64,000 bases of DNA from a virus. Lineage: Duplodnaviria; Heunggongvirae; Uroviricota; Caudoviricetes. The translations under genes were made by a program, and so were the position numbers. The notes beneath the pieces are model-generated. The model made no database searches, was not told the DNA's origin, and saw only the letters and a list, made by a program, of their open reading frames with translations. Shown here one piece after another: positions 7,703 through 32,574 of the stretch. Location of the stretch: IMG/VR virus record IMGVR_UViG_3300027708_000034, positions 18,332 to 82,331 of that record; one strand, written 5' to 3'. Position 1 is the stretch's first letter. Every line of letters starts with the position of its first letter.

Positions 7703-8691
7703 ACTGGAGTAAGGTTGCTGCGGAATATACGCCAGGCATTGTCCCAGGACCATCTCTGGCTACCCACTAGGACCTGATTGCGATCTAACTTCAACGCTGC
7801 GTCTACAGCATCTTTAAGGTTACCACGGATACAACCAGTGACACCATCGTCGACTACATCTTCAGGTCCTTGGCAAGGATATGCTGCTACAGGGGTGCCG
7901 CAGGCCATGGCTTCGATCATGACTATACCAAATGTTTCCCATCGGCTGGGAAATACAAACACTTCTGCATTGGAATAATAACGTGCCAAGTCTATACCGG
8001 TCTTAAATCCTGTAAAGTGTACATCAGGATAACGCTTGCGATATGTTTCTAACATGGGTCCATCGCCTACCATGATCTTCTGATATCCTGGATAGTCCAG
8101 TTCGAAGAAATCTTCCAAATTCTTTTCTTTGCTGACACGGCTAACACACAGTAGATATTTGCCAGGAAAGTCTTCTCTCAAATCCGGTCGGAATATATCA
8201 CGATCAACACCGCGAGTCCAAGGAACCACCTCGCCACGGAATCCATGTCGTTCTAATTCTCGTACCATGCTGTCAGTAGTGGTCAACACACGGCCACTGT
8301 GCTTATGGAACCAACGAACGAATCTCCATGTGATCCATTCTGGTATACCAAACAGTTTCTTTAGACCTTCAGGAAACTTAGTATGATAAGCGGTATTGTG
8401 CCTAATATTATATAATGAAAGATACTTTCGAGACCACAGACCAAGAGGACCTTCTGTCGCGATGTGGATATAATCTGGATTGATCTCCGCAATCTTCTTG
8501 CCCAAGTTCCGGGGATAGGCAATCTTGACTTCGTTATATTTAGGGCAATCAATGTAGCGGAACCACCCGGGATGAAGCACCACAAAGTTATAACCGTCCA
8601 GAACCGCACATGTCTCAATATTCTTATATGTCGTGACAACGCCATTGATCTGATCCGGTAGATTATCAGTTATTATTAATATCGTTTTCAT
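7690..8691 (-). CDS. Glycosyltransferase family 4 (GT-B, GT1 superfamily)
   Basis: C-terminal VFVFPSRWETFGIVMIEAMACGTPV (EX7E motif region) typical of GT4 retaining glycosyltransferases. Confidence 0.8.
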   Translation of the reverse strand: MKTILIITDNLPDQINGVVTTYKNIETCAVLDGYNFVVLHPGWFRYIDCPKYNEVKIAYPRNLGKKIAEINPDYIHIATEGPLGLWSRKYLSLYNIRHNTAYHTKFPEGLKKLFGIPEWITWRFVRWFHKHSGRVLTTTDSMVRELERHGFRGEVVPWTRGVDRDIFRPDLREDFPGKYLLCVSRVSKEKNLEDFFELDYPGYQKIMVGDGPMLETYRKRYPDVHFTGFKTGIDLARYYSNAEVFVFPSRWETFGIVMIEAMACGTPVAAYPCQGPEDVVDDGVTGCIRGNLKDAVDAALKLDRNQVLVGSQRWSWDNAWRIFRSNLTPVQSS

Positions 8692-9578
8692 TGTATCTTC
8701 AATTTAATGAAATCAACAATGTGTTGTGCCATGTCCTGCCCACAATGCTTATCCATTCCTTTGAATCCAGGACTGCTGTTTGCCTCACATACTTTATACC
8801 CATCTTTATCGAATAATAAGTCAACTCCTGCTATCTGTAGGCCTAGCACACGAGCAGTTTCTCTTGCGATATAATCAATCTCCGGCGTGATATTAAATAA
8901 TTCACCGTGACCGCCTTGGCTGATATTAGCGCGGAAGTCTCCTTCTGCCCCTGTTCGTTTCATGGCTACGACGGTTTTACCACCTATCACCCATACTCTT
9001 AAATCAGTTCCTGGCATGGCATCTACAAATTCTTGTATGATCAATGTTTTCTTTAATGCTATGCTTGATAGCAATTCCATTAGACCTTCGAAAATTTTTC
9101 GTGTCTCGCATAGATAAACTGTCTTACCTCTACTGCCGCTAGTGGCTTTTACTACGCATGGAAACCCAATCTCTTTTTCAATCAACTCAATATCAACATC
9201 TCCGTTGACCAATATAGTTTTAGGAATAGGTAAACCTGCGCTGGCCAATACTTGACTGGTCATTAATTTATCACTAACTATTGCCACACTTTCGGTATCG
9301 TTAATAACCGGCACGCCTAACTTTTCAAACTGACGCATCAATGCCAGTGTAAAATAAGCACTACCTGATCCGGTTCGGCTTAATATCAAATCTGGTAAAT
9401 CGATCTTTTCGCCCCGATATCTGATACTTTTAGAATTTCCACGATTGACAATAATATCAAAATATTTTGGTTCAAGTATTTTGCTATCTATTCCGTTCTG
9501 TTGAAGACATTCAATCAGTCTGGTATTTTCATAAGCAGTAATTCCACTAGCGTGATGAAGTATCCATACTCGTTTCAT
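8688..9578 (-). CDS. rimK: RimK-like ATP-grasp ligase (alpha-L-glutamate ligase family)
   Basis: Colinear with E. coli RimK: DFRANISQGGHGE and EANSSPGFKGM motifs at the ATP-grasp C-terminus. Size 296 aa. Confidence 0.85.
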   Translation of the reverse strand: MKRVWILHHASGITAYENTRLIECLQQNGIDSKILEPKYFDIIVNRGNSKSIRYRGEKIDLPDLILSRTGSGSAYFTLALMRQFEKLGVPVINDTESVAIVSDKLMTSQVLASAGLPIPKTILVNGDVDIELIEKEIGFPCVVKATSGSRGKTVYLCETRKIFEGLMELLSSIALKKTLIIQEFVDAMPGTDLRVWVIGGKTVVAMKRTGAEGDFRANISQGGHGELFNITPEIDYIARETARVLGLQIAGVDLLFDKDGYKVCEANSSPGFKGMDKHCGQDMAQHIVDFIKLKIQ

Positions 9579-10359
9579 TTTCGTCCTTTTCTTGAGTCCA
9601 TGTAATTATTTCCCATGTACCGTCGTGATGTTCGACTAGCGCAGTACACGATTCGACCCAGTCACCGTCATTCATATATTTAATACCATCTATGGTCTTG
9701 ATCTCGGCATGATGAATGTGTCCACATATCACCCCATCGAACCCACGCTTCTTACAATAGCCTGCTAGATTACGTTCAAATTGAAACATGAAGTCAATGG
9801 CCTTCTTCACACGCTGTTTTAAGTATTGACTCAAACTCCAATAACCAAATCCAAACTTGTGTCGTAACCAATTGAATCTAGTGTTCCATATCAAGATCCA
9901 GTCATAAGCAGTATCGCCTAAAAAACTCAACCACGGCGCTAGTCTAGTGATGCCATCGAACATGTCTCCATGCACTACGAGATAATGTTTACCGTCCGCA
10001 CCTATGTGTTCGGTTTGATTACATATCTCTATCAAGCCAAAACTGAACCCATATGGGATCATGGGCCGAAGAAATTCGTCATGATTGCCAGCCACATACA
10101 CAACCCTAGTGCCACGTTTAGCATGACCAAGAACACGGCGAACCACGTTAGTATGGCTTTGTTTCCACCGCCACTTGTTTTGTTGGATTCTCCAGGCATC
10201 GATAATATCTCCTACAAGGTATAGGGTATCACAGGAATTATGTTTGAGAAAGTTGTTGAGCTGGTCGGCTTTACAATCTCTAGTACCGAGATGGACATCA
10301 CTGACGAAGATGGATCGGTATGTCTTCATAACCATATTTACTGCAAAAATGGGGTTCAA
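9547..10359 (-). CDS. Calcineurin-like metallophosphoesterase, LpxH-like (UDP-2,3-diacylglucosamine pyrophosphatase family)
   Basis: FVSDVHLG...YLVGDIIDAW...AGNHDEF...VVHGDMFDG...GHIHHAEI matches the LpxH motif order (DLHL...ILGDLFEAW...GNRDF...MHGD...GHTHRP). The true start may be an internal Met. Confidence 0.55.
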   Translation of the reverse strand: MNPIFAVNMVMKTYRSIFVSDVHLGTRDCKADQLNNFLKHNSCDTLYLVGDIIDAWRIQQNKWRWKQSHTNVVRRVLGHAKRGTRVVYVAGNHDEFLRPMIPYGFSFGLIEICNQTEHIGADGKHYLVVHGDMFDGITRLAPWLSFLGDTAYDWILIWNTRFNWLRHKFGFGYWSLSQYLKQRVKKAIDFMFQFERNLAGYCKKRGFDGVICGHIHHAEIKTIDGIKYMNDGDWVESCTALVEHHDGTWEIITWTQEKDENETSMDTSSR

Positions 10360-10391
10360 ATATTACAGTTCTATTAAACAGGTATATTAAG

Positions 10392-10399
10392 TATAAATA
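10392..10399 (+). promoter_or_regulatory. TATAAATA motif immediately upstream of the 10405 ORF
   Basis: Exact 8-mer 5 nt before the ATG. Either a late promoter for a transcript with almost no leader, or the real start is the second Met. Confidence 0.25.
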
Positions 10400-10404
10400 T
10401 TATA

Positions 10405-11052
10405 GTGAAAAAGCCCAAAATAGCAGTATTCATGCATCAACCCATGTGCTCGGTACAATCGGGCAACGGGATCATTAACGCCCTAAAATCACACTACGAT
10501 TTCAAAATATTCACCAAACATGAATTAGAGTCTGTATTCTTCAAAGATGTTGATATGGTTGCCTTTCCCGGTGGGTTTGGCAATTCTGATAGTTATGACT
10601 ACTTGCTGAAAATAAACGGCGACCCCATAAGGGAATTTGTCGATCGTGGCGGCAAGTATCTAGGCATTTGTATGGGCGCCTATTGGACCGGCAGTCACTA
10701 CTTTGACCTGCTGGATGGCATTGATGCTGTACAATACTACAAACGACCCACGGCCTGTACACATCGCCCACATACAAAGGCCATGCCCGTGACATGGAAT
10801 GGGCGGCCTGAAAAGATGTTCTTCAATGATGGATGCACCTTTGTGGGCAACCCTAAAAAGTATGAAACCATAGCCACTTATTCAAATGGTGATCCAATGG
10901 CCATCATACAAAACGGTATGGGATTAGTCGGCTGTCATCCAGAGAGCGAACAGTTTTGGTATGACAGTTATCGTTGGATGCCACCACATTGGCATGAGCA
11001 CAGACATCACAGCCTATTGCTTAAATTCGTGGACCAGCTGATGCAGCGGTAG
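10405..11052 (+). CDS. Class I glutamine amidotransferase-like protein (GATase1/BPL_N-like)
   Basis: GICMGAYW nucleophile-elbow (G-x-C-x-G) and an upstream AFPGGFG motif. The 3' end overlaps the convergent minus-strand gene by about 30 nt. Confidence 0.5.
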   Translation: MKKPKIAVFMHQPMCSVQSGNGIINALKSHYDFKIFTKHELESVFFKDVDMVAFPGGFGNSDSYDYLLKINGDPIREFVDRGGKYLGICMGAYWTGSHYFDLLDGIDAVQYYKRPTACTHRPHTKAMPVTWNGRPEKMFFNDGCTFVGNPKKYETIATYSNGDPMAIIQNGMGLVGCHPESEQFWYDSYRWMPPHWHEHRHHSLLLKFVDQLMQR

Positions 11053-12727
11053 CAGCTTTAGTACCCATTGGTATTTTAGATCCATCTGGCTTATTTAGAT
11101 TTTGTATACCCGGGGGATCTTGTGTAGTCGGCACAGGTTGCTGTTGTTGTACCGGTGCAGGTTGCTGTTGTACTGGTGCAGGTTGTTGCATAGTTTGCTG
11201 TTGAACAGGTTCTGATTGATTGGGATTCTGTTCTATATAGTTTTCGATATCGGCAATATTCTTTAACAACGGACCCATATTAATTCTATTTCTAACAGCT
11301 TTTGATCTATTATCAAATTGAGATCTAAGATCAATCAATCTAGCTGGATCACCTCTTGATGGGGTGAATTTTTTGGCCAAATCAGTTTTAGGCAATCCGT
11401 ATATAGAAATTACATATCCCTTTTCTTGTCTCAGCTCAACAAACAATTTAAGTTGTTTTAGTGCTTGTTCGAACTCTGTTCCAAAAGACAACTCTGCAAA
11501 GGCTCTTTTACTATCCGGTTCTAAGATAACCATTTCAACGCCTTCTTCTTTTCTGGTCAGATGTGTTAGTAATCCTTGATAAACATTTTCAATAAGGCTG
11601 TCTGGATTGCTTTTTGCCAAAACTTGTAACTGTTTGCTAATGTATTGATAACTATGAGAAAAAGCATTTTGAAAGTTTTGTTCTTTTTTATCATTCCAAG
11701 TAGCAGGTGCTTTGTAAGGAATTTCGTAGAATTTTTTTCTAAGATCTTCTGATAATGGTATTCCTACAATAGAGGTAAAAAAATCATTTAAGTTATCAAA
11801 ATTATGTCCGCCGGCCTGTCCAAACTGTTCAACGCCGCCTGCCTTAACACTTAGCAGTCTCTTTGCGGTTTCTTTACCGTCGATTAAAATCTTCAAGTCT
11901 ACCTTGGTTGTATTTTGATTTTCTTTTTCTGCACCATCGCTGATGACATCGATCTTATTTTCTCTCGGGTCCGTTACTGCTTCGTTAACTGCGCCAGATA
12001 TGCGTTTGGATTTATTAGCATATTCAATTGCACTTTTTAAACGTTGATCAAAAAGTGCAATTTTGTCTTTAGGAACATTATAGTCTTTTAAAGTTTTTCC
12101 TCTACTGTCTTCATTTAACCAAGCATAAAATGCTTTATTATCCATGAAGGGAATACTTACTTTAAACTCTAATATATCTTTTCCTGCTTGAATTTGTATA
12201 CTTCCTTTATTTCTTGCCAACTCTTTGGCTATGCTTATTACCTGCATTTCTGTAATAATTGAACCTTGGTTGGAAAATTTAGCAGCGACAGCACACCCTA
12301 AAATTGCCTCGGATACATTTCCCATGTTAGGATCAATTTCACCTTTGACTTTTTCATCTTTATAAATTTGTTTTGGAATAACATTTTCCCACTCTTCGCC
12401 AGTAGGTTCGAAAGTCTGATCATCAACTTCTGCCACAGTGAAAAACACATTACTGAAGTCTTTAAGTTTTATAGCACGTTTCATTTGTGCGATAACATTC
12501 TCAGGGTTTTGTATAATTCCTAAAAATCTATTCTCAGTTTTTTCTGCTTTTCTTGAACCGGGCAACTTTTCAGAAGTTACAACATTGAAAGCATACACTT
12601 GATTGTTAATTAACCCGTCAAAAAATAAATTATAATACTGAGGTTTAAGCCAATCGTTATCATTGCCTGTCTGGCTCATGAGCTTTTCAAGTAGTATTGA
12701 TTCGGATAAAAATTCTCTTGCTCGCAT
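11021..12727 (-). CDS. Putative head internal protein with T4-like capsid targeting sequence (start taken at MRAREFLSE)
   Basis: The N-terminus MRAREFLSE resembles the T4 internal-protein capsid targeting sequence MKTYQEFIAE, including the L/I-x-E prohead-protease site. C-terminal PAPVQQQ repeats. It is the last gene of the dnaK operon. Confidence 0.5.
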   Translation of the reverse strand: MRAREFLSESILLEKLMSQTGNDNDWLKPQYYNLFFDGLINNQVYAFNVVTSEKLPGSRKAEKTENRFLGIIQNPENVIAQMKRAIKLKDFSNVFFTVAEVDDQTFEPTGEEWENVIPKQIYKDEKVKGEIDPNMGNVSEAILGCAVAAKFSNQGSIITEMQVISIAKELARNKGSIQIQAGKDILEFKVSIPFMDNKAFYAWLNEDSRGKTLKDYNVPKDKIALFDQRLKSAIEYANKSKRISGAVNEAVTDPRENKIDVISDGAEKENQNTTKVDLKILIDGKETAKRLLSVKAGGVEQFGQAGGHNFDNLNDFFTSIVGIPLSEDLRKKFYEIPYKAPATWNDKKEQNFQNAFSHSYQYISKQLQVLAKSNPDSLIENVYQGLLTHLTRKEEGVEMVILEPDSKRAFAELSFGTEFEQALKQLKLFVELRQEKGYVISIYGLPKTDLAKKFTPSRGDPARLIDLRSQFDNRSKAVRNRINMGPLLKNIADIENYIEQNPNQSEPVQQQTMQQPAPVQQQPAPVQQQQPVPTTQDPPGIQNLNKPDGSKIPMGTKAATAASAGPRI

Positions 12728-12737
12728 AGTAGTATAT

Positions 12738-13409
12738 TTATACCACTTCTGGGAACAGGACTTCGTCCACAAACCGCTTCATCTTAGATTCATCTATGCC
12801 CATACTGACCATGCTGCGTATGACATGGGGGTTTTGCTTTTGATAATAGCAATAACGGTTCTGCGCCATATGGAAATCTGCTAGATCCTGCTGCGTATTG
12901 CCTACATTTAATAGATAATAATCCAAGGTTCTTGTGGCCAGCTCGCATAGATTATTCAACTCTTCCTCGGTTGATACATTGCCAGCAGCAACCATGTTGG
13001 GACTAAAAATTTGCTGAGCCCATTCTGGCAGATTCCTAGACTTACCCCACTCGTAAAACAATGCTTCGGTCCCGAACCACTTCATCATAGGATGGGCAGG
13101 ATCTCCTGCTGCGCTGAAGTCGCAGAATGCACCTGTGATTTTATTGGGACCGCAGACTGCATCAAAGCCCCAAATAGGGCTAGGATCGTTAAAGTGTGGA
13201 AATACTGTAGAGTGCAGTATATAGATATTGTGGCTCTCCCTATGGTCTACGATTTCCACATGGGCTCTGCGATATCGCGGGCTGGTCCAAAGGTCATTGT
13301 GCCATTCATAATCACTACTGATCTTGCCGTGTACAGCCTCACCGGTGGCATTGAATCTCGATTTGATATCCTCAGCTAATTTTTCAATTTTGTCCCAAAC
13401 GTTCGCCAT
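12738..13409 (-). CDS. Ferredoxin-dependent bilin reductase (PcyA/PebS/PcyX family)
   Basis: WTSPRYRRAHVEIV...ILHSTVFPHFNDPSPIWGFDAVCGPNKITGAFCDFS aligns with the PcyA core (YQTPQFRKMHLEL...ILHCVMFPEP...[20 protein letters not shown]). Confidence 0.85.
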   Translation of the reverse strand: MANVWDKIEKLAEDIKSRFNATGEAVHGKISSDYEWHNDLWTSPRYRRAHVEIVDHRESHNIYILHSTVFPHFNDPSPIWGFDAVCGPNKITGAFCDFSAAGDPAHPMMKWFGTEALFYEWGKSRNLPEWAQQIFSPNMVAAGNVSTEEELNNLCELATRTLDYYLLNVGNTQQDLADFHMAQNRYCYYQKQNPHVIRSMVSMGIDESKMKRFVDEVLFPEVV

Positions 13410-13926
13410 ATGATTCCATTATTTTAATCGCCCAGTCAAAGGCTATGTTAGCTTCATCTCCCATGTCGTCTGACAGCATACTACGCATATTAGTCATCAA
13501 CATTTTAGGATCTTCAAAGTCTAAATGTGAGTGCGGTGCGTCCACGATCTTCTTGATCATCTGCCCACCAAACAAGTCGCCCATATGCCAAGTGTATAAG
13601 TGTGCCATGATGCGTTTAGGATCATCTAGTGATCTAATGTAGCTGGCGTAATCCTTTGTCTCTTGCTTATATGTATTGTAACTACCCGTGGGTTTATCCA
13701 TGCTTTGGTAATCATCCATTATCAGTCCTGCCCGTTCAATCCCGGGCAATGCATTTAGCAATCCTGCTTTTCGAGCAGCATGTTCGATCTCTTTATACCA
13801 AAGTTGTTTTTGATAGGTAAAATCTACCCATAGTTCAAAGGGCAATGTTTTGTCAAATACTGCTTTCATGAAAGCAGTGCTTTCGGCAGCAGTGTGTTTG
13901 TCTTTGGTGAGATCTTTTAGGCTCAT
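13384..13926 (-). CDS. Heme oxygenase (short phage-type HO)
   Basis: LKDLTKDKHTAAESTAFMKAV matches HO-1 LKEATKEVHTQAENAEFMRNF. AHLYTWHMGDLFGGQMIKKI matches [20 protein letters not shown]. Confidence 0.85.
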   Translation of the reverse strand: MSLKDLTKDKHTAAESTAFMKAVFDKTLPFELWVDFTYQKQLWYKEIEHAARKAGLLNALPGIERAGLIMDDYQSMDKPTGSYNTYKQETKDYASYIRSLDDPKRIMAHLYTWHMGDLFGGQMIKKIVDAPHSHLDFEDPKMLMTNMRSMLSDDMGDEANIAFDWAIKIMESYGERLGQN

Positions 13927-14225
13927 TCCTGTACTGCCTTAGTGACCAAAGGATGACCGTTTAGTCTAGACAGCTCAGTGGCCTCTGCGACTTTCTGTTC
14001 GGCGATTTCATAACTGTAGATGCCCACTGCCGCACTACCTTGTTCATGAATCTGATAAGTCAATCTAATAGCAGATTCAGTGCTTATAGAAAACACCTTA
14101 ACCAGCAATGCTATCACAAATTCTACAGGAGTATAATCGTCGTTCATGACGACTACTTTATATTTGCTAGGTTCTTTTAACTTCCTAGTAACTCTTGTTT
14201 TTTCTTCAATTGCAGTATCAGTCAT
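13923..14225 (-). CDS. clpS: ClpS ATP-dependent Clp protease adaptor (N-degron recognin)
   Basis: YKVVVMNDDYTPVEFVIALLVKVF...GHPL is colinear with E. coli ClpS ([24 protein letters not shown]...EHPL). Confidence 0.85.
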   Translation of the reverse strand: MTDTAIEEKTRVTRKLKEPSKYKVVVMNDDYTPVEFVIALLVKVFSISTESAIRLTYQIHEQGSAAVGIYSYEIAEQKVAEATELSRLNGHPLVTKAVQE

Positions 14226-14269
14226 CTAATTCTTTCTTTATAAATGGGGGAGATTTACTCCCCCGATGT

Positions 14270-14704
14270 TTAATCGCCTTTGATAGTTAGTACACGCGGC
14301 TTCAATGCTTCGGGTACCACGCGATCTATTTTAATGGTTAAAACACCATTTTTAATAGCGCCTTCGCCTACGATCATATGTTCAGCCAGTGTCCACGAAC
14401 GAGTAAAGTCGCGGAATGCCAAACCACGGTGTAGAAATTCAGCATCGACATCACTGTCTTTGCTGCGAACACCTTTAACGATCAATTGGTTTTGATCGAT
14501 CTCAACCGCAACTTCATCCTTGGCAAAACCTGTCACAGCGATTTCGATCTCGTAAGTATCTTCATCGTGCTTGACGATATTGTAAGGTGGATAGCTGTTG
14601 TTGATTTGATTTGCAAAACGATTTTCGAAATCGTTGAACATGGTATCAAAACCTAGTAGTGCTCTATTAAGAGCATGGGTGTCAAAACGTACTAATTGTG
14701 TCAT
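14270..14704 (-). CDS. Small heat shock protein Hsp20 (IbpA/IbpB-like)
   Basis: FDTMFNDFENRF...YPPYNIVKHDEDTYEIEIAVTGFAKDEV...VPEALKPRVLTI is colinear with E. coli IbpA (alpha-crystallin domain, IxI-like C-terminus). Confidence 0.9.
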   Translation of the reverse strand: MTQLVRFDTHALNRALLGFDTMFNDFENRFANQINNSYPPYNIVKHDEDTYEIEIAVTGFAKDEVAVEIDQNQLIVKGVRSKDSDVDAEFLHRGLAFRDFTRSWTLAEHMIVGEGAIKNGVLTIKIDRVVPEALKPRVLTIKGD

Positions 14705-14791
14705 ATTTTTCTCCTTTAAAAGTAAGTGACAACATTGGGCATTGTGCCCTATAAAGTGGGACCCTAAATAGGTATCCCACGATATTATTTA

Positions 14792-16693
14792 TTATACAGT
14801 TTCCTTAGCCTCTGCGTCAACGACTCCATCAGCCGCATCCTTTTTAGCCTGTTCTTCAGCCTTCTTGGCTGCTTCCTCGGCTTGGTTTTTCTTAGCAGTG
14901 ACTGGGTTCATGGCTTGATAAAGTTTAGGAATAGTATCTTGGATGAGTTTTACATCATCGCCCGACATGGCATCCTCAAGCGCCTTGACCGCGTCTTCAG
15001 CAGTAGCACGTTCTTCTTCAGTGAGTTGGTCACTGTATTTTTCTAGATCCTCTTTGAATCCGTTCAATGTACCTTCTGCACGATTGCGTTCCTCAATCAA
15101 CTCGCGCTGCTTCTTATCTGCTTCAGCATTGAGTTCAGCATCTTGGACCATGCGATCGATTTCCTCTTTGGTCAATCCGCTGTCGGACTTGATAGTGATC
15201 TTGTTCTCTTTGCCTGTGCCTTTATCAGCTGCTTTGATATTCATGATACCGTTGGCATCGATATCTAGCGTGACTTCGATCTGTGGAACACCTTTGCGAG
15301 CAGGTGGGATGCCTTCTAATTTGAATTCGCCCAACAATTTATTATGCTGGACGAATTCACGCTCGCCTTGGAATACTTTGATGTCCACTGCAGATTGATT
15401 ATCTTCGGCTGTTGAGAACACTTGACTATGCTTGGTAGGAATAGTGGTATTCTTTTGAATCAACTTGGCCATCACCCCGCCCATGGTTTCGATACCAAGA
15501 CTCAATGGGGTAACGTCTAGCAATAGAACGTCTGTACGTCCACCACCTAGCACATCGCCTTGGATAGCAGCACCTGCGGCCACTGCTTCGTCTGGATTGA
15601 CGTCTTTGCGAGGAGCCTTGCCAAACAACTTCTCAACTGTTTCAACTACCTTAGGCATACGTGTCATACCACCGACAAGGATAACTTCGTCGATATCGCT
15701 GGCTGTGACTTTGGCATCTGCCATAGCTGTCTTGCATGGCTCGATACTGCGTTGGATCAGTTCGTCTACCAAACTTTCCAATTTAGCACGGGTCAACTTA
15801 ACGTTCATGTGTTTAGGACCTGATGCATCTGCTGTGATGTAAGGCAAGTTAACATCGGTCTGTGCTGAACTTGACAGTTCAATCTTGGCCTTTTCTGCTG
15901 CCTCTTTAAGACGTTGTAGTGCCAACATGTCTTTCTTGAGATCAACGCCGTTGTCCCGCTTGAATTCATCGACCAAGAAGTCCATGATACGTTGGTCAAA
16001 GTCTTCACCACCCAGGAATGTATCACCGTTGGTGCTTAGTACTTCGATTTGTTTCTCGCCATCAACATTGGCAATTTCGATGATGGATACGTCAAATGTA
16101 CCGCCACCCAAGTCATATACAGCAATCTTGCGATCACGCTTGTCTGCTTTATCAACACCATAGGCCAGTGCAGCAGCAGTAGGTTCGTTGATGATACGCA
16201 ACACTTCAAGTCCAGCGATCTTACCTGCATCTTTAGTTGCTTGACGTTGCTGGTCGTTGAAGTAGGCAGGAACTGTGATAACAGCCTGCGTGACTTCGTG
16301 TCCCAAATAGTCCTCAGCAGTCAGTTTCATCTTGCGAAGTACTTCAGCTGAAATCTGTGGTGGGGCAAGTTCTTGTTCGTTGGCCTTGACCCAAGCATCG
16401 CCATTACTGGCTTCGATGATTTTGTAGGGCATCAGATCGATGTCCTTCTGCACAGCCTGTTCTTTGAACTTACGTCCAATCAAACGCTTGGCTGCATAAA
16501 TTGTGTTTTTTGGATTGGTGATTGCTTGTCGTTTGGCACTTGCACCTACCAGAATTTCATCGCTAGCATATGCAATGATGCTGGGAGTAGTCCTCGCACC
16601 TTCGCTGTTTTCGATTACTTTGGGGATACCGTTTTCAATAACGGCTACGCATGAATTGGTTGTACCGAGGTCGATACCGATTACTTTACTCAT
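14792..16693 (-). CDS. dnaK: Molecular chaperone DnaK (bacterial-type Hsp70)
   Basis: N-terminus [31 protein letters not shown], and an acidic, lid-like C-terminus. Full length 633 aa. Confidence 0.95.
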
Positions 16694-16736
16694 TTTTTCT
16701 CCTTTAAATTAAGTAAGATTTTTTGGTGTTACACCG

Positions 16737-16763
16737 TTGTAGATGCCATTAGGTCATCTACAC
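16737..16763 (-). promoter_or_regulatory. 9-bp inverted repeat with 9-bp spacer (TTGTAGATG-N9-CATCTACAC) in the dnaK leader. CIRCE-like geometry but a different sequence.
   Basis: Lies between the predicted dnaK promoter (-10 at 16772-16777) and the SD. Eight of nine arm positions are complementary. Confidence 0.45.
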
Positions 16764-16771
16764 ATTTATTT

Positions 16772-16800
16772 AGTATAGCTAGATTAGCTGGATGTGTCAA
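16772..16800 (-). promoter_or_regulatory. Sigma70-type promoter for dnaK (minus strand: TTGACA-N17-TATACT)
   Basis: -35 TTGACA (RC of 16795-16800), 17-nt spacer, -10 TATACT (RC of 16772-16777). Sits about 70 nt upstream of the dnaK ATG. Confidence 0.5.
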
Positions 16801-17038
16801 CGTGGTCCGCAGCTTTTTCGACTCCACGCATGGCTTCGTCATATTCTCTTCTACTCTTTCCCACATCGAAATTATCAGGCACAGATTCTCGGATGGCAGT
16901 TAAAATTGGATGTAATAGTTTACTTGTGATTCCTCGGCTCATGTCTTCCATGACCTCTGCAGGATCGTCACCATTGGCGATCCGTTGAAGGGCCCGACCT
17001 TTTTCGAACATTTCTACTCTAGCCGCCCATGACTCCAT
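16784..17038 (-). CDS. Orphan glutamyl-tRNA reductase (HemA) C-terminal dimerisation-domain-like protein, 85 aa from the internal Met METMESW
   Basis: RALQRIANGDDPAEVMEDMSRGITSKLLHPILTAIRE parallels the GluTR dimerisation domain (E. coli [37 protein letters not shown], B. subtilis GIVNKLLHDPVVRLKE). No catalytic or NADPH domain is present. The longer 153-aa ORF form overlaps the upstream gene. Confidence 0.4.
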   Translation of the reverse strand: MESWAARVEMFEKGRALQRIANGDDPAEVMEDMSRGITSKLLHPILTAIRESVPDNFDVGKSRREYDEAMRGVEKAADHVDTSS

Positions 17039-17042
17039 TGTT

Positions 17043-17348
17043 TCACCCGGTTTTATTTTCACGATTAGACTTAATATGATGTCCGTATTTAAGCACAAAA
17101 AAAGTAGCGTACTTTTCTGTATAAAAAGCAAATACAGCATTGGGCGCAGGTATTGGTGGATCGTTGTATGTTCTATATGGAGCAGGATGATACGCCCAAT
17201 CAAAATCGTGACCCATGATCCATCCCTGTTCTCGTAGTTCTTCAACTATGTCCAACAGTGCGGGCACTTTGATATCGTGGAGTGTTATTTGATTCATGAC
17301 CACCTTATCAAGAACATGGTCAGGTCCTGTGGTCGTTTGAAATACCAC
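17043..17348 (-). CDS. Hypothetical protein (true start probably the internal Met MNQITLHD)
   Basis: ORF in the minus-strand gene train. Its N-terminal region overlaps the upstream paralog gene. Confidence 0.4.
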   Translation of the reverse strand: MVFQTTTGPDHVLDKVVMNQITLHDIKVPALLDIVEELREQGWIMGHDFDWAYHPAPYRTYNDPPIPAPNAVFAFYTEKYATFFVLKYGHHIKSNRENKTG

Positions 17349-17563
17349 CTGCCGTCGTGATAGACACAGGTTTCAGATTTGAAAGTTTCTGCACACCATT
17401 GGCTTTGATCCCATAACTCACGGCCAGGAGTGAGCGCATGGGCCGCTGGGGTGCTATGAGTCAGTCGAACTCTGCGGCGGCCGTAATCAATGATCAATAC
17501 GGGCCGTTCTGCTGTTATGACCACCTCTGCTGTCATAACCACCTCAGGATAAACATAGTCCAT
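17294..17563 (-). CDS. Small protein, TMFILRWS family member 1 (C-terminus TMFLIRWS)
   Basis: Shares the C-terminal motif W-x-F-x(6-7)-TMF(I/L)(L/I)RW(S/L) with the next two genes. Its start overlaps the end of the upstream paralog. Confidence 0.5.
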   Translation of the reverse strand: MDYVYPEVVMTAEVVITAERPVLIIDYGRRRVRLTHSTPAAHALTPGRELWDQSQWCAETFKSETCVYHDGRWYFKRPQDLTMFLIRWS

Positions 17564-17793
17564 TGTTGCTCAGTAAATTCAAAGGTCACCCAAGAATTTT
17601 CACTGCGATACATTCTATTCATACCAAAATATTCAGGCGCTGTTGAAAATAATCCGTCGAATCCATGCTCACGCCAACTTTCCTGCATATCATCTGGTAA
17701 CTGATTTACGATAACATCTTTAACCATTCTCCACCCGGCCTTCTCCGCATGATCGTCTATCCCCATTTCAGCACCTAATACTATCATGACCAC
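17533..17793 (-). CDS. Small protein, TMFILRWS family member 2 (C-terminus TMFILRWL)
   Basis: Same C-terminal motif. Overlapping start/stop with its neighbours. Confidence 0.5.
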   Translation of the reverse strand: MVMIVLGAEMGIDDHAEKAGWRMVKDVIVNQLPDDMQESWREHGFDGLFSTAPEYFGMNRMYRSENSWVTFEFTEQQWTMFILRWL

Positions 17794-18074
17794 CTCAAGA
17801 TAAACATAGTGCGATCCCGCTCATCACGGAACCACAACTTTTGATTACTGCCTATACAGCGAGCATTCGCCGATGACCAATCACTCTCTCCTATAGTTTC
17901 AGTGATCCAATCAGACATATCAAGCCATTCGTCCGCAGAGTAATTCAATGGTTTGACCCAATAAGGATATTTAGGTTGTATCTCAGCATAGCCGGTTTCA
18001 AGACGTTTTGCAGGTATAAAACTATCAACATCATCTACCCATCTTGCTTGAGACATAGCACGTTTCTTAAACAT
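17784..18074 (-). CDS. Small protein, TMFILRWS family member 3 (C-terminus TMFILRWS)
   Basis: Same C-terminal motif. Confidence 0.5.
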   Translation of the reverse strand: MFKKRAMSQARWVDDVDSFIPAKRLETGYAEIQPKYPYWVKPLNYSADEWLDMSDWITETIGESDWSSANARCIGSNQKLWFRDERDRTMFILRWS

Positions 18075-18321
18075 TAATCATCTTACCAACATGTTCCACA
18101 GTGAGATCATTGTTGGGCACGATAGGAGCGTTCCACATCAAGGCCATCATCAATGCGTCCTTGTTGCTGTTAAAAACAAAGTCCATATGCTCGGTATCGA
18201 CACGGGTATGAAATCTATCACCAGGTAGGCCAAAGTATTCTACAGCCCATGCGCAGACTTCATTCCATTTTTGCTCATTATCGAATTCACGACCCCATGC
18301 TATGCGTACTGTGCTGCTCAT
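18067..18321 (-). CDS. Small protein, divergent relative of the TMFILRWS family (internal DFVFNSNKDALMMALMWNA)
   Basis: Motif-like segment F-x-F-x5-ALMMALMW followed by a C-terminal extension. Adjacent to the family. Confidence 0.4.
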   Translation of the reverse strand: MSSTVRIAWGREFDNEQKWNEVCAWAVEYFGLPGDRFHTRVDTEHMDFVFNSNKDALMMALMWNAPIVPNNDLTVEHVGKMINV

Positions 18322-18542
18322 GTCTGCTTCTTAGGATCTTCGATTTTAGCGTCGATACAGGTGCCTTCTAGTATGGTCATCTTTCCGGCATTGGCCTGCT
18401 CAGCAACTTCCAGCATATGTATTTTTTGACTGTCGATGCTGGCTCTGCATTGTGCCTCACTTCGATAAACTGTTTGGGCCTGCATAAAATTACAGTTGCC
18501 ATTCATACAGATGAACAGCACAGGTATAAAAATTTCAATCAT
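18318..18542 (-). CDS. Small hypothetical protein with hydrophobic N-terminus and four Cys
   Basis: ORF in an ATGA-overlap chain. IFIPVLFICMNGNC N-terminal hydrophobic segment. Confidence 0.4.
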   Translation of the reverse strand: MIEIFIPVLFICMNGNCNFMQAQTVYRSEAQCRASIDSQKIHMLEVAEQANAGKMTILEGTCIDAKIEDPKKQT

Positions 18543-18784
18543 AGTTCAACTCCAAAAAATTCTCTAAGGTGTTTCTGCACCTGTGATGCACCCTCGTAAC
18601 TCAAATCTGAATTTTCATCACGCAGGACATCACGCACACATTCGATAGCATGACCAACAATCAACTCGGCAAACTTTTCTAAGTCTGTTTCTCGACCATC
18701 CACAACAGGCACCATTGGATTGCTCATCAGTTGAGTAAATCTCAGCCCAGCCTGTTCGGCAAGTTCTTTAATTCGTTCGTTCAT
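18539..18784 (-). CDS. Small protein, MNERIKELAEQA/KFAELIV/FGVE family member (start taken at the internal MNERIKELAEQAG)
   Basis: Shares the N-terminal MNERIKELAEQA, central KFAELIVGHAIEC and C-terminal FFGVEL motifs with four paralogs at 30.3-31.5 kb. Confidence 0.5.
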   Translation of the reverse strand: MNERIKELAEQAGLRFTQLMSNPMVPVVDGRETDLEKFAELIVGHAIECVRDVLRDENSDLSYEGASQVQKHLREFFGVEL

Positions 18785-19601: not shown

Positions 19602-19996
19602 GTTATCTTAACCTTGTGTGTTTCTGCTCGATCGCTGTACAACTTATGGCCGCGTTCCCTGATCAATTCTGCTGTAAATTGTGGGTGTTCCTCCCACTGT
19701 TCTCGCCAAAATTTCTCATCCATTTCTTCAGTACAATCCACAGCATAGATTTCATAATGCCGCTGTGAATTGTATTTGGCCCGCAATATTAAATTTCGGA
19801 CGATACCATCTAGTGGATTTTTTATTGTGGGCTTTTCGCTGAGAATACGGATTAAATTTTGCTGTTCAATGTGCTCATATTGAGAGATAGGAACGATGGA
19901 TTCGATACCCATGTTATCCCAACTAAAGATAAATGCGTTTTTGGTTGCCATGCCACTATTATACACTAATTCATTAATCTTGTCAAGGATTTCCAA
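19598..19996 (-). CDS. Hypothetical protein (132 aa)
   Basis: ORF with a 4-nt overlap to the downstream gene. Confidence 0.45.
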   Translation of the reverse strand: MEILDKINELVYNSGMATKNAFIFSWDNMGIESIVPISQYEHIEQQNLIRILSEKPTIKNPLDGIVRNLILRAKYNSQRHYEIYAVDCTEEMDEKFWREQWEEHPQFTAELIRERGHKLYSDRAETHKVKIT

Positions 19997-21747: not shown

Positions 21748-21784
21748 TGTTGTCTTTCTATAGTTTTAAACAACTATTATAGCA

Positions 21785-23020
21785 CTATGCGGCAGGTGTG
21801 TCAACGGCTTTTTTATTAAATTCCATCAAGGCGTTGCCTTTGCCGCCCACAGTGTTTTTATCTATAACAATTTTAACCAGTCCTCGTTCCACTAGATCCA
21901 TGGCTTCAAACTGATACGGCAGTAATATTTTTTCGATGATGTTTTTCAATCCACGAGCGTTAGTTTTAAGTTCCTTGGCTTTCTCAGCTATCTGTGATAA
22001 TGCTTCTTTTTCAAACATTAGTTCGATGCCATCTAATTTAAAAATGTATTGATACTGTTTGACAATGCTGTTCTTTGGCTCGTCCAATACCTGCACGAGA
22101 TTTTCGATAGACAATTCATCCACGTTGGTGATCAATCCAAACCTGCCTACAAACTCAGGAATCAATCCGTACTGTATAAGGTCCTTGGTGCTGACTAATC
22201 TGTAGGGGTTTTCTACCACTGTTTTATCTACAGAAGCTGAGTGGAATCCCACGCTGCGAGTATCCATACGTTTTTCGATCAGCTTGTCTAAGCCAACAAA
22301 TGCCCCGCCGCATATAAACAAGATGCTGCTGGTATCGATTTCCTGCATGTCACCGCCCGGGTGCTTACGCTTGCTGGTAGAAGGGATACGCATGATGCTG
22401 CCTTCGATCATTTTTAAGAGTGCCTGCTGTACGCCTTCTCCTGACACATCTCTTGTTATGCTGACGTTTTCGCCTTTACGTGCGATTTTATCTATCTCGT
22501 CGATATAAACAATACCCCGAGATGCTTTGGCTACATCACCATCAGCTTCGTTGATTAGTCGTGTTAGAATGCTTTCCACATCATCACCCACATAGCCCGC
22601 TTCTGTGATACCTGTGGCATCACATATGACAAAAGGCAGATCCAAATACTCGGCAATCTTTCTTGCCAGCATGGTCTTGCCGCAACCAGTAGGTCCTAGT
22701 AATAGTACATTGGTCTTTTCTAGTCGTATTTCTTTACTTGGATTGTTGATGCGCTTGAAGTGTTGACTGACTGCTACACTAAGAGCAATTTTAGCATCGT
22801 CCTGTCCGACAACATAATCGTCTAGGTAATCTTTGATCAACGTGGGATTCAAAAGATTTTTATGATCGTGAGGTTTTTTACCCTTTTCATCATTTAGTAT
22901 TTCCGAGCATAGGTCTATGCAGTCATTGCAAATAGCAGCATGTTCACCGACTATAAGTTTTTCAACATCTTCTTTGCTCTTACCGCAAAAATCGCAATTA
23001 TGATTTGTTTGTGTCGTCAC
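21785..23020 (-). CDS. clpX: ClpX ATP-dependent protease ATPase subunit (N-terminal C4 zinc finger plus AAA+ domain)
   Basis: CDFCGKSKEDVEKLIVGEHAAICNDCIDLC zinc-binding domain. LLLGPTGCGKTMLARKIAEYLDLPFVICDATGITEAGYVGDDVESIL is colinear with E. coli ClpX. Confidence 0.9.
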   Translation of the reverse strand: MTTQTNHNCDFCGKSKEDVEKLIVGEHAAICNDCIDLCSEILNDEKGKKPHDHKNLLNPTLIKDYLDDYVVGQDDAKIALSVAVSQHFKRINNPSKEIRLEKTNVLLLGPTGCGKTMLARKIAEYLDLPFVICDATGITEAGYVGDDVESILTRLINEADGDVAKASRGIVYIDEIDKIARKGENVSITRDVSGEGVQQALLKMIEGSIMRIPSTSKRKHPGGDMQEIDTSSILFICGGAFVGLDKLIEKRMDTRSVGFHSASVDKTVVENPYRLVSTKDLIQYGLIPEFVGRFGLITNVDELSIENLVQVLDEPKNSIVKQYQYIFKLDGIELMFEKEALSQIAEKAKELKTNARGLKNIIEKILLPYQFEAMDLVERGLVKIVIDKNTVGGKGNALMEFNKKAVDTPAA

Positions 23021-25066: not shown

Positions 25067-25249
25067 TTACAGAACTTCAATTAGCAATTTGTGCAGATTG
25101 TCCCTGCGCTCTGATTCATCGACTAACATCTCGTAATCTTCTTTACCACAGCCACATTCTGGGCAGGTAAAATCATCGGCTAGGTTTTCCCACTTGCCTT
25201 CGGTCGCTTCATCGTGGACATGCCCACATACTACGCATACTGGTTTCAT
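25067..25249 (-). CDS. Rubredoxin-like protein (60 aa)
   Basis: CVVCGHVHDE...W...FTCPECGCGKEDYE: two CxxC(G) knuckles with the conserved Trp/aromatic spacing of rubredoxins. Confidence 0.65.
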   Translation of the reverse strand: MKPVCVVCGHVHDEATEGKWENLADDFTCPECGCGKEDYEMLVDESERRDNLHKLLIEVL

Positions 25250-25698
25250 TATAGTGCCTCCAATTTTGATTGATATGCTGCCGCATGGCGCTGTTCGATT
25301 TTTGCCAATGCTGCAAAACGCTTTTCTGCCTTAGCCAATACTGCTGCAAATTTCTCTGCATGTTCTTGGCTTTCGGCGATTTGATGATCAGCTTCGATCA
25401 CTGCACGGGCATTACCTTCGTGTTCCGCTGCTCTCTTGAACTCTGGATACATGGTGGTAAACTCATAGGTTTCACCTTCGATAGCCTTCTCCAAACACTC
25501 TCGGGTTGATGGTTTGCCAACGAGCAATTCCAAATGACCCCAAGCGTGTAGCAGTTCTTGATCTGCGGTATGCTCAAAATGTTGAGCAATTTCCTCATGG
25601 CCTTCTTCACGGGCGATCCGGGCAAAGTAGCGATACTTGATGTGTGCTTGGCTTTCCCCTGCCAAGGCACTTTCAAGATTTTTAATTGTAATAGACAT
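25249..25698 (-). CDS. Rubrerythrin/ferritin-like diiron protein (no fused rubredoxin domain)
   Basis: Paired E...ExxH motifs (ESQAHIKY...EEGHEEI and EGETYEF...ESQEHAEKF) typical of rubrerythrin diiron four-helix bundles. Confidence 0.7.
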   Translation of the reverse strand: MSITIKNLESALAGESQAHIKYRYFARIAREEGHEEIAQHFEHTADQELLHAWGHLELLVGKPSTRECLEKAIEGETYEFTTMYPEFKRAAEHEGNARAVIEADHQIAESQEHAEKFAAVLAKAEKRFAALAKIEQRHAAAYQSKLEAL

Positions 25699-27295: not shown

Positions 27296-27324
27296 ATTAT
27301 ACAGTCGAAAGCATTAAAAGTCAA
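27296..27324 (-). promoter_or_regulatory. Sigma70-type promoter with extended -10 (minus strand TTGACT-N15-TGTATAAT), upstream of the ParB-like gene
   Basis: -35 RC of 27319-27324, -10 RC of 27296-27301, preceded by TG. Located immediately after the porin terminator. Confidence 0.5.
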
Positions 27325-32479: not shown

Positions 32480-32574
32480 TTTGGTTGTTTTGATAATAAG
32501 GTAAGTCCTACCTCACCAAAGCCTAAGCGGCGATGGAATATAACTCGTCGTTTGCAGTTATGAAATTTGCTTGA

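Follow-up and report, generated by a model that had tools for sequence, protein, structure and literature searches.

We investigated a 64,000-nucleotide (nt) stretch of phage DNA, hereafter the window, which corresponds to positions 18,332 to 82,331 of the IMG/VR virus record IMGVR_UViG_3300027708_000034 (Caudoviricetes). On its minus strand, at 11021-16800, it carries six head-to-tail open reading frames (ORFs) that encode DnaK, Hsp20, ClpS, a heme oxygenase (HO, gene hemO), a ferredoxin-dependent bilin reductase (FDBR) and a 568-amino-acid (aa) protein whose first residues resemble a capsid-targeting sequence (CTS). The linkage of the proteostasis genes to the heme-catabolism genes is real and widespread, and it is undescribed as far as the searchable literature shows. 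The reading that we favour, with slightly better than even confidence, takes it for the fusion of two host-takeover modules into a single block whose genes are co-expressed, with no obligatory physical coupling between the modules. The single components are already published, namely HO-FDBR cassettes, including freshwater ones (PMC11480375), phage hsp20 (PMC7674155), phage ClpS (PMC7824862) and CTS-bearing proteins (PMC3012670, PMC9026906). No paper combining ClpS, heme oxygenase, phage and DnaK was found in the searchable literature, and the key papers on single components are silent on the linkage, in agreement with an initial annotation of this DNA, made from its letters alone, which had called it an arrangement not described before.

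Layout of the six-gene block

The genes of the block, in the order of transcription, are the following.

14792-16693, minus strand: dnaK, 633 aa, full-length Hsp70 (PF00012, E=1.6e-256)
14270-14704, minus strand: hsp20, 144 aa, IbpA-like small heat-shock protein (PF00011, 3e-15)
13923-14225, minus strand: clpS, 100 aa, ClpA adaptor (PF02617, 7e-28)
13384-13926, minus strand: hemO, 180 aa, short canonical heme oxygenase (PF01126, 4.8e-13)
12738-13409, minus strand: FDBR of the PcyA/PcyX (AX) clade (PF05996, 1.8e-20)
11021-12727, minus strand: 568-aa protein with a CTS-like leader (MRAREFLSE), a central domain like that of restriction endonucleases and a Q/P-rich disordered tail

Profile searches bore out all six gene calls of the initial annotation, the sixth through its CTS leader and without a Pfam family, and the ORF listing of the window gives the same head-to-tail order on the minus strand. 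The overlapping or near-overlapping junctions that had been described are present between clpS and hemO (4-nt overlap, ATGA), between hemO and FDBR (26-nt overlap) and between FDBR and the 568-aa gene (10-nt gap). They are not found between dnaK and hsp20 or between hsp20 and clpS, where spacers of 87 nt and 44 nt, respectively, both contain conserved regulatory elements. The inventory of six genes stands, and it had missed a mini-protein directly upstream that is homologous to a domain of glutamyl-tRNA reductase (GluTR), as well as ClpX and a transfer-messenger RNA (tmRNA) further upstream.

Conservation of the arrangement in related phages

An FDBR-anchored set of 80 IMG/VR loci was annotated with the window proteins, 69 of these loci being unique and having at least 3 kb of upstream sequence, and a ClpS-anchored set of 79 loci served as the reverse test. 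Hsp20-ClpS-HO-FDBR is found in this order in 49 of the 69 FDBR-anchored loci. DnaK stands in front of the block in 28 of these 49 and is thus an optional member. In the reverse direction, HO directly follows ClpS in 70/79 ClpS-anchored loci. The geometry of the junctions is nearly constant, with ClpS/HO at -4 to +9 nt and an HO/FDBR overlap of 4-38 nt, and the spacers range from 33 to 74 nt between Hsp20 and ClpS and from 58 to 113 nt between DnaK and Hsp20. The block is still present where the FDBR is only 43-48% identical to that of the window, and it occurs with both catalytic classes of the enzyme, Asp-His-Asp (18 loci) and Glu-His-Asp (25 loci); its flanks vary widely among relatives. Two loci present the variant order Hsp20-DnaK-ClpS-HO (L227, L230), and two others have tandem FDBR genes after HO (L047, 9310-10663; L051, 9285-10666).

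The exact FDBR protein of the window was found on nine independent freshwater-lake contigs that have the same gene order (six were read), and this order is repeated on dozens of diverged contigs that stem from different lakes and were built by different assemblers, as well as in a deposited 358-kb phage genome (GCA_902725345.1). The search of related phage genomes recovered the gene order in dozens of metagenomic viral contigs that are independent of each other, far more than chance would produce.

The exceptions to the full block are informative. Insertions are seen only at the ClpS|HO and HO|FDBR joints: a beta-ketoacyl-synthase gene at the former (L050, L051), and an alpha/beta-hydrolase (L012, L017) or a class-II-aldolase-like gene (L067) at the latter, all identified by eye and motif. 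The possibility that these inserts are bilin-binding proteins was rejected, as by the same inspection they look like unrelated auxiliary genes. In seven ClpS-anchored loci without HO/FDBR, and in L057, ClpS lies beside Hsp20 and/or ClpX, and ClpX directly adjoins Hsp20-ClpS or ClpS in loci where HO/FDBR are not beside ClpS (L212, L220, L222, L233, L247, L057). HO-FDBR occur alone in about 20 loci, plus the Pelagibacter phage Mosig. Therefore, because ClpS without HO stays with Hsp20/ClpX, because HO-FDBR occur alone and because insertions are restricted to the ClpS|HO and HO|FDBR joints, these loci are most simply described as having a proteostasis module and a heme module, which are usually found fused.

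Heme oxygenase and bilin reductase

HemO matches PF01126 with 49.8 bits (cut-off 23) over profile positions 6-141 of 204, the C-terminal third being too diverged. Its proximal His11 aligns with the corresponding His of PDB 5KZL, and its distal-helix motif GDLFGGQ with GDLSGGQ of that structure; both elements are conserved in 73 relatives. The protein is thus, as first annotated, a short heme oxygenase, with 180 aa and with the catalytic His and GDLFGGQ kept. Very similar short HOs of freshwater phages are present in the supplementary data of PMC11480375.

The best PDB match of the FDBR is PcyX 5OWG (E=5e-48, compared with 6.5e-10 for PcyA), and no PebS, PebA or PebB is among its matches in the PDB at E<=0.01. 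The placement of this enzyme in a PcyA/PebS family is therefore retained for PcyA, as part of the PcyA/PcyX clade, and dropped for PebS. Its triad Glu52/His66/Asp83 is of the PcyA type, the PcyA residues being Glu76, His88 and Asp105, and Glu52 stands at the position of Glu76, which is Asp in PcyX. PcyA, with Glu at this position, makes phycocyanobilin (PCB), and PcyX, with Asp, makes phycoerythrobilin (PEB). The Glu/His/Asp triad of PcyA is set out in PMC13446030. Phage HemO and PcyX, plus vHemO and vPcyA of the freshwater phage CB_2, have been assayed, and the CB_2 FDBR was shown to make PCB (PMC11480375). By these sequence features the FDBR is assigned to the AX clade and is not a typical PcyX. 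Considering the PcyA-type triad, and by analogy with the CB_2 enzyme (PMC11480375) and with PMC13446030, its predicted product is PCB rather than PEB. The closest relative of the FDBR within the phage collection is from a Pelagibacter phage. A regex search of the plausible ORFs of the window found no ferredoxin Cys motif.

The pair resembles the known phage hemO-pcyX and hemO-pcyA(-alaS) cassettes (marine metagenomic phages, Mosig, CB_2; PMC11480375) in that HO immediately precedes an AX-clade FDBR and overlaps it. Those cassettes also come from aquatic uncultured T4-like phages and have a short HO with the catalytic His and GDxxGGQ, and the freshwater hemO-pcyA cassettes have a PcyA-like active site, as does the FDBR of the block. 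Unlike in these cassettes, HO-FDBR here follow hsp20-clpS, which dnaK may or may not precede, and are themselves followed by the gene of a CTS-tagged protein. The alaS of known cassettes was not seen in the window, and the GluTR dimerisation-domain mini-protein adjoins the block instead. Chaperones and Clp are not mentioned in PMC11480375.

The proteostasis genes

DnaK covers positions 1-596 of 599 of PF00012 (852 bits) and exceeds the cut-offs of both NCBIfam equivalog models (NF001413, 969.6 with a cut-off of 648; TIGR02350, 897 with a cut-off of 822.55). The closest cellular DnaKs are those of Burkholderiales, at 72-74% identity. The absence of DnaJ and GrpE from the window, claimed in the initial annotation, was upheld by two scans: the J-domain motif HPD[KRQ] was not found in any frame of the window, by a crude regex test, and none of the roughly 60 window ORFs scanned matched DnaJ or GrpE.

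The alpha-crystallin domain of Hsp20 is recognised by PF00011 (56.6 bits, cut-off 20.8) and by phrog_432 (1.4e-37). Its best NCBIfam model is the IbpA equivalog, with a score of 119.7 that lies under the cut-off of 212, and the protein is best described from these scores as IbpA-like and not as an IbpA equivalog. In cyanomyoviruses and in large freshwater pmoC-phages (PMC7674155), hsp20 is nearly universal and often adjoins auxiliary metabolic genes, which is likewise the case here. Unlike in those phages, the hsp20 of the block heads a clpS-hemO-FDBR unit and has a structured leader that it has in common only with dnaK.

ClpS matches PF02617 with 96.7 bits and is 48% identical to ClpS of Escherichia coli. 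It retains the N-degron pocket (NDDYTPVEFV and His60), which in E. coli ClpS is formed by N34, D35, D36, T38 and H66; the gatekeeper Met40 of the E. coli protein is replaced by Val. The N, D, T, F, V and H residues are invariant across 26 phage members. The window has no clpA gene. Phage-encoded ClpS is known from the jumbo phages PA5oct, Atu_ph07 and others (PMC7824862), where a ClpS adaptor is likewise predicted to redirect host ClpAP. These proteins are 34-42% identical to ClpS of the block and have not been reported beside heme genes.

Two further features of protein quality control lie upstream of the block.

21785-23020, minus strand: ClpX homologue (zf-C4_ClpX and AAA_2), about 5 kb upstream of dnaK
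32521-32892, minus strand: permuted (two-piece) tmRNA (Rfam tmRNA_permuted, 122.6 bits)

The top model of the Rfam clan for the tmRNA is alpha_tmRNA, and ARAGORN predicts the tag peptide ANDELYSIAA. A sigma70-like promoter (32446-32474) overlaps the predicted 3' end of the tmRNA and faces the downstream SPFH gene. Together, tmRNA, ClpX, ClpS, DnaK and Hsp20 make an unusually complete protein-quality-control set.

Promoters and transcription units

The two chaperone genes are each preceded by a sigma70-type promoter, and a hairpin follows hsp20.

16772-16800, minus strand: sigma70-type promoter before dnaK, TTGACA-N17-TATACT, then AAATAAA
14791-14820, minus strand: sigma70-type promoter before hsp20, TTGACG-N18-TATAAT, then AAATAA; overlaps the dnaK stop codon
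14245-14265, minus strand: GC-rich hairpin after hsp20, GGGGGAG-UAAAU-CUCCCCC, then UUUAU
12735-12742, minus strand: TATAAATA at the junction of FDBR and the 568-aa gene; includes the FDBR stop codon and ends 7 nt before the next ATG

The consensus sigma70 promoter that had been proposed upstream of dnaK is present in near-consensus form (TTGACA-17-TATACT, 16800-16772). In relatives, promoters of this type matching at least 11 of 12 positions were found before dnaK in 11/28 cases, before hsp20 in 28/50 and before clpS in 4/49, and never before HO (0/68) or FDBR (0/78), with 1.1% in random windows. The -10 element continues into ATAAATAAA, and the AAATAAA that follows the dnaK promoter resembles a late motif of the T4/cyanophage type. 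The late motif nATAAATA precedes dnaK in 27/28 relatives and hsp20 in 30/50, compared with 3.1% of random windows, and in a distant clade it stands alone, with no -35 element. Since both the sigma70-type and the nATAAATA motifs are strongly enriched before dnaK and hsp20, and neither is seen before HO and FDBR, the chaperone genes are probably expressed both early and late.

The -35 hexamer of dnaK is located inside the conserved C-terminal ..ADHVDT.. codons of the upstream mini-protein. In relatives whose mini-protein has a differing or longer C-terminus, the hexamer is re-created in other codons at the correct spacing, which argues that the dnaK promoter is under selection. The coding sequence of the mini-protein and the dnaK promoter constrain each other.

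Over the whole window, 21 coding-strand sigma70-type promoters with at most 2 mismatches, a family that includes the one before dnaK, were counted against 11.3 expected, which suggests a T4-like early region under host sigma70. Several of them are the following.

19958-19986, 21776-21804, 31512-31540 and 35450-35478, minus strand: perfect TTGACA-N17-TATAAT
27296-27324 and 32446-32474, minus strand: TTGACA-N17-TATAAT with 1 mismatch

The T4 late-promoter consensus TATAAATA occurs 10 times in the window, compared with 4.2 ± 1.5 expected, and none of 100 shuffles reached 10.

7011, 7070, 10392, 12735, 33246, 46511, 48429, 48798, 49779 and 50150: copies of TATAAATA, mostly just upstream of ORFs

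At the junction after FDBR, a nATAAATA motif takes in the stop codon in 35 of 70 cases, and in 12 of those, the window included, the motif is exactly TATAAATA.

The hairpin after hsp20 is found, with varying sequence, at the same position in all of the approximately 55 relatives, often with a U-run next to it, and it looks like a terminator, an attenuator or a 3' stabiliser. Since, in addition, clpS, hemO and FDBR have no promoters of their own, this hairpin suggests a single hsp20-clpS-hemO-FDBR transcript that is attenuated after hsp20. The view that the six genes are co-transcribed early as one operon is therefore not upheld, given the separate conserved promoters of dnaK and hsp20, the late-type motifs, the hairpin and the TATAAATA copy between FDBR and the CTS-tagged gene.

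A leader RNA specific to the chaperone genes

Both dnaK and hsp20 have a structured 5' leader with a Shine-Dalgarno (SD) sequence.

16694-16766, minus strand: dnaK 5' leader, with hairpin 1 at 16762-16738, hairpin 2 at 16735-16725, the motif UCUUACUUA at 16718-16710 and the SD AAGGAG at 16704-16699
14705-14782, minus strand: hsp20 5' leader, with hairpin 1 at 14780-14756, hairpin 2 (GGGCACAAUGCCC) at 14749-14737, the motif CACUUACUU at 14728-14720 and the SD AAGGAG at 14716-14711

The common layout is a promoter, hairpin 1, often a second hairpin (GGGCAnnnUGCCC), an A-rich stretch, UCUU(A/G)CUUA, AAGGAG and AUG. The dnaK leader has a minimum free energy of -20 kcal/mol (z=-4.4), and its motif UCUUACUUA pairs with UGAGUAA at the start codon; in the hsp20 leader, the segment UUGUCA pairs with the first hsp20 codons. 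The pattern CT[TC][AG]CTT-N2-9-AGGAG-N4-12-ATG occurs 98 times in the 1.46 Mb of loci and window, and all 98 occurrences lie directly before hsp20 or dnaK. Homologous leaders are present in loci L002-L093.

In 77 leaders, 8 of the 9 pairs of hairpin 1 exhibit compensatory changes. The hairpin 1 cells are paired in 90.5% of cases, compared with 72% after shuffling (0/500 as high) and 32-46% with slid partners. Additionally, the motif region and the nucleotides immediately 5' of it complement, and covary with, the first codons of the cognate gene, as seen in the hsp20 leader/codon pairs GAUUC/GAAUC, CGUUC/GAACG, AGUUCUU/AAGAACU and CAUUC/GAAUG and in the dnaK pairs cuuAcuua/AUGagU and cuuGcuua/AUGagC. 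The cognate duplex is more stable than non-cognate ones both for hsp20 (-5.86 against -3.97 kcal/mol, 0/2000 permutations as low) and for dnaK (-7.08 against -6.32 kcal/mol, 10/2000 permutations as low).

In heat-shock genes, a weak stem of this kind over the SD and AUG would behave like an RNA thermometer. The leaders of the block are similar to the ROSE and fourU thermometers of small heat-shock genes in their U/C-rich UCUU(A/G)CUU near the SD and in the weak stem of the start region. Unlike in ROSE and fourU elements, the stem pairs with the first codons and not with the SD alone, and there is no Rfam match at E<=1 in 10300-18600, for which reason known thermometers and riboswitches were rejected as an identification. 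The leader is thus a candidate for a new cis-regulatory RNA, a thermometer-like or translational control element.

The CTS-bearing protein

The CTS of bacteriophage T4 is MKTYQEFIAE. The 568-aa protein carries the leader MRAREFLSE, its start being more likely the ATG at 12727 than the TTG at 12772, as indicated by gene callers on identical metagenomic contigs and by the conserved N-terminus. A second ORF of the window has nearly the same leader on an otherwise unrelated body.

47168-48076, minus strand: 302-aa ORF with the leader MRAREFIAE; no PHROG or NCBIfam match

The gene that lies 8-11 nt after FDBR starts with MRxxEF in most related loci, with bodies that differ in length and sequence, and leaders of the MRAQEF/MRxxEF type are also found on other proteins in relatives, e.g. 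on a 143-aa acetyltransferase-like ORF in L008. The proposal of a CTS-bearing internal protein thus gained support from the second ORF (48076) and from the related loci. The family to which the body of the 568-aa protein belongs comprises at least 120 clusters and has no Pfam domain. Its central domain appears to have a restriction-endonuclease-like fold, and the conserved S263-D264...D277-x-K279 may, on modest support, correspond to the SD-Xn-(Q/N)-x-K motif. The core has homologues in Synechococcus phages, and one homologous cyanophage protein lacks the leader. By analogy with T4, the 568-aa protein is probably a packaged (internal) head protein, and the TATAAATA or nATAAATA motif at its junction with FDBR fits a head protein that is expressed late.

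The internal proteins of T4 have diverse bodies and a common CTS that is removed by the prohead protease (PMC3012670, PMC9026906). The proteins described here are like T4 IPI-III and Alt in having a short leader with an EF(L/I)xE core on unrelated bodies, a potential (L/I)xE cleavage site and a late-promoter motif upstream. Unlike the T4 proteins, they are much larger (302 and 568 aa), and the body of the 568-aa protein represents a conserved family whose fold appears to be like that of restriction endonucleases. A T4-like capsid-targeting leader in this lineage could be used for finding its injected proteins.

A proposed fusion of two modules into one co-expressed block

We propose that the block is a conserved auxiliary-gene island with three expression units, which would be dnaK, hsp20 continuing into clpS-hemO-FDBR, and the CTS-tagged gene. 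With their own promoters, each combining a sigma70-type -35/-10 with nATAAATA, dnaK and hsp20 would be expressed across the infection cycle, and the structured leader, with its 5' hairpin and the weak stem over SD and AUG, would probably bring some post-transcriptional tuning of both. The hairpin after hsp20 would pass part of the transcripts into the promoterless clpS-hemO-FDBR, and the CTS-tagged gene would be served by read-through and by the late-promoter motif in the FDBR stop, its product being probably packaged in the head. At the protein level, HemO would open host heme to biliverdin, iron and CO, and the FDBR would reduce biliverdin, most likely to PCB, with host ferredoxin. The phage ClpS may re-programme the substrate choice of host ClpAP, and Hsp20 and DnaK may hold and refold proteins. 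The proteostasis module (Hsp20 and ClpS, with ClpX and DnaK as variable members) and the heme-catabolism module (HemO and FDBR) would be kept together by selection for co-expression and compactness. The identities of the genes, the phage origin, the broad conservation of the block and its regulatory motifs are secure; we infer the enzyme activities in this scheme by homology to assayed phage enzymes, and likewise the timing of expression, the packaging and the absence of direct coupling, and the same applies to any functional coupling between the genes of the block.

The block is indifferent to the product class of its FDBR, being kept whichever class is present, and this speaks for heme removal, more than for pigment supply, as the function under selection. 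Why phages of heterotrophs carry HO and FDBR is an acknowledged open question, on which the authors of PMC11480375 'can only speculate'. In a large and abundant group of freshwater phages, the two genes are the tail of an hsp20-clpS unit, often beside a copy of a GluTR domain, and this linkage shifts attention from pigment to heme removal and protein turnover, and names concrete, clonable partners. The chaperone-specific leader RNA and the family of GluTR-domain mini-proteins (about 200 clusters) are possibly more novel than the linkage itself.

Several points weigh against the reading of two modules that are merely co-expressed. The association of ClpS and HO is very high in both directions, the cluster survives a change of gene order (L227/L230), and the protein adjacent to it has a GluTR domain, and each of these hints at more than co-expression. 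Both locus sets were gathered by similarity, with one phage lineage over-represented. As for the ATGA overlap of clpS and hemO, it was rejected as proof of functional coupling, such overlaps being common in compact phage genomes; occurring as they do between unrelated phage genes, they prove neither coupling nor independence.

A GluTR-domain mini-protein and a heme-homeostasis reading

Directly upstream of dnaK, and missed by the initial annotation, lies a small gene.

16784-17038, minus strand: 84-aa stand-alone homologue of the C-terminal dimerisation domain of GluTR/HemA (PF00745); an alternative start, GTG 17062, would give 92 aa

The protein matches PF00745 with 29.8 bits (cut-off 22.9), and 21 of 21 family members match this profile (best E=4.8e-10). 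It aligns with residues 361-402 of E. coli HemA by BLASTP (E=6e-5) and with GluTR by hhalign (E=0.002, probability 14%). Its AlphaFold2 (AF2) model has three helices (predicted local distance difference test score, pLDDT, 85), and nothing significant was found in a PDB profile search or in a Foldseek search of this model. The homology to the GluTR domain, which rests on Pfam and on the pairwise alignment to E. coli HemA, is remote. An exhaustive profile search returned 199 representative clusters, nearly all of 54-117 aa, which identifies a family of stand-alone mini-proteins and not gene debris; full-length GluTRs were not among the best 150 hits. Some JGI records name the protein GluTR; this was rejected, as it has no more than the C-terminal domain and lacks the catalytic and NADPH-binding domains of that enzyme. 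The mini-protein occurs in 29 loci, in most of which it lies 80-125 nt before dnaK, or before hsp20 where dnaK is missing, and it is absent within 10 kb in a more distant clade that keeps Hsp20-ClpS-HO-FDBR. In three very long proteins, P0259 (1966 aa), P0286 (2712 aa) and P0375 (1117 aa), the first two helices of the mini-protein profile are matched 7-26 times in tandem.

In bacteria with the C5 pathway, GluTR (HemA) is rate-limiting in tetrapyrrole synthesis and is broken down by ClpAP and Lon at high heme; plastid ClpS1 recognises the GluTR N-terminus. Betaproteobacteria make 5-aminolevulinic acid through GluTR. As a control point of tetrapyrrole synthesis, GluTR is degraded under heme control; in plastids this is done by Clp together with ClpS/ClpF, in Salmonella by ClpAP/Lon (PMC6597238). 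ClpS, the heme level and GluTR, the players of this turnover (PMC6597238), are all encoded or mimicked here. The circuit is, however, a cellular one with no known phage involvement, and its Clp recognition is N-terminal, whereas the phage protein copies the C-terminal domain only. The neighbourhood of a GluTR-domain mimic, ClpS and a heme-destroying pair is suggestive and is not evidence of mechanism.

These players could be joined in a takeover of heme homeostasis, a reading that we consider tentative and rather unlikely, in which the GluTR-domain mimic, ClpS, HemO and FDBR act on one host circuit. HemO and FDBR would lower heme, ClpS would re-programme ClpAP, and the decoy would dock onto the GluTR dimer interface or onto regulators, so that tetrapyrrole flux and the use of Glu-tRNA would be locked in a phage-favourable state, with Hsp20 and DnaK buffering aggregation-prone enzyme or apo-hemoprotein clients. 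The position of the mini-protein at 80-125 nt upstream in most of the 29 loci, with or without dnaK, its roughly 200 nearly all stand-alone clusters, the heme-controlled degradation of GluTR with ClpS or ClpAP (PMC6597238), the conserved pocket residues of ClpS, a closest cellular DnaK that is betaproteobacterial, and an indifference to FDBR product type that points to heme removal and to no particular pigment are all consistent with it. It is opposed by the distant clade, which keeps Hsp20-ClpS-HO-FDBR with no mini-protein within 10 kb, by the remoteness of the GluTR similarity (hhalign 14%, no PDB or Foldseek support), and by the recognition of the GluTR N-terminus, and not of the dimerisation domain, by ClpS. 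The tmRNA is permuted and of alphaproteobacterial type, and these bacteria rely on ALA synthase and not on GluTR. A little less likely still is the stronger form, in which the block and its upstream neighbour would be a phage device against host heme-sensing control of tetrapyrrole synthesis, made of the GluTR-domain decoy, a ClpS re-programming ClpAP, and HemO/FDBR wiping out the heme signal, with the chaperones under a new thermometer-like leader. If true, this device would be the first viral mimic of a tetrapyrrole-pathway regulatory domain and would explain the retention of HO/FDBR in phages of non-photosynthetic bacteria.

We consider improbable an iron salvage fed by proteolysis, in which ClpS/ClpAP, and the phage ClpX with tmRNA/ClpXP, would target host proteins including hemoproteins, HemO would free iron for ribonucleotide reductase (RNR) and rubrerythrin, FDBR would clear biliverdin for HemO turnover, and the chaperones would handle the apo-proteins. 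The window does encode ClpX (21785-23020), the tmRNA, the RNR large subunit and rubrerythrin, an iron-supply role of phage HemO/PcyX is discussed in PMC11480375, and the indifference to FDBR product type would be expected. The case is, nevertheless, purely circumstantial: iron release needs HemO only, yet FDBR is kept everywhere, and there is no sign that hemoproteins carry N-degrons or are ClpAP substrates.

Phage lineage and host

Genes for a collagen-like tail fibre, for baseplate-wedge-like and virion proteins, for ribonucleotide reductase and for ClpX, along with many small ORFs, are present in the window, and the tail fibre, baseplate and virion proteins confirm the phage origin of this DNA. 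A 1049-aa virion protein is 51% identical to those of the Synechococcus phages S-CAM1 and S-CAM3, the closest isolates, from which the phage is assigned to large freshwater T4-like myophages related to Kyanoviridae. Megablast of the region found no near-identical record among 50,697 phage genomes. Diverged relatives are on contigs of 113-358 kb, and the related contigs come from IMG/VR and from freshwater metagenomes, among them the 253-kb ENA BUCK21-1 scaffold_5. The GC content is even across the region. A porin fragment of proteobacterial type (PF00267), the alpha-type permuted tmRNA and the resemblance of DnaK to that of Burkholderiales are the host clues in the window, which are mixed, and among the roughly 60 window ORFs scanned there is no match to a photosynthesis family; the host is probably a proteobacterium.

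These data bear on the classical supply of pigment by cyanophages, in which the host would be a freshwater picocyanobacterium, HemO and FDBR would sustain phycobilins, and Hsp20, DnaK and ClpS would protect or remodel the photosynthetic apparatus. Such a role would agree with the closest isolates being cyanomyoviruses, of which hsp20 is a core gene (PMC7674155), with the PcyA triad and predicted PCB product of the FDBR and with the Synechococcus phage homologues of the core of the 568-aa protein. We regard it, nevertheless, as very improbable, since the closest cellular DnaKs are from Burkholderiales, the porin and the tmRNA are of proteobacterial and alpha type, no photosynthesis family was matched in the ORFs scanned, the closest FDBR in the phage collection is from a Pelagibacter phage and related large freshwater phages have been assigned to methanotrophs (PMC11480375, PMC7674155). 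Finally, a chance juxtaposition or a bacterial/phage assembly chimera, which could be suspected from the 72-74% identity of DnaK to bacterial DnaK and from the bacterial contamination of some 'phage' database records with dnaK, is refuted for practical purposes by the same order on at least nine independent contigs with identical FDBR and on dozens of diverged ones, by the even GC content and by flanking genes that are phage genes.

Other features of the window

Around the block, auxiliary genes at 8688-11052, 25249-25698, 27370-28260 and 31565-32422 encode a RimK-like ATP-grasp ligase, a BPL_N/GATase-like protein, two calcineurin-like phosphoesterases, a porin-like protein, rubrerythrin and an SPFH/band-7 protein. 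The BPL_N/GATase-like gene runs in the other direction and overlaps with its 3' end, tail-to-tail, the 568-aa gene.

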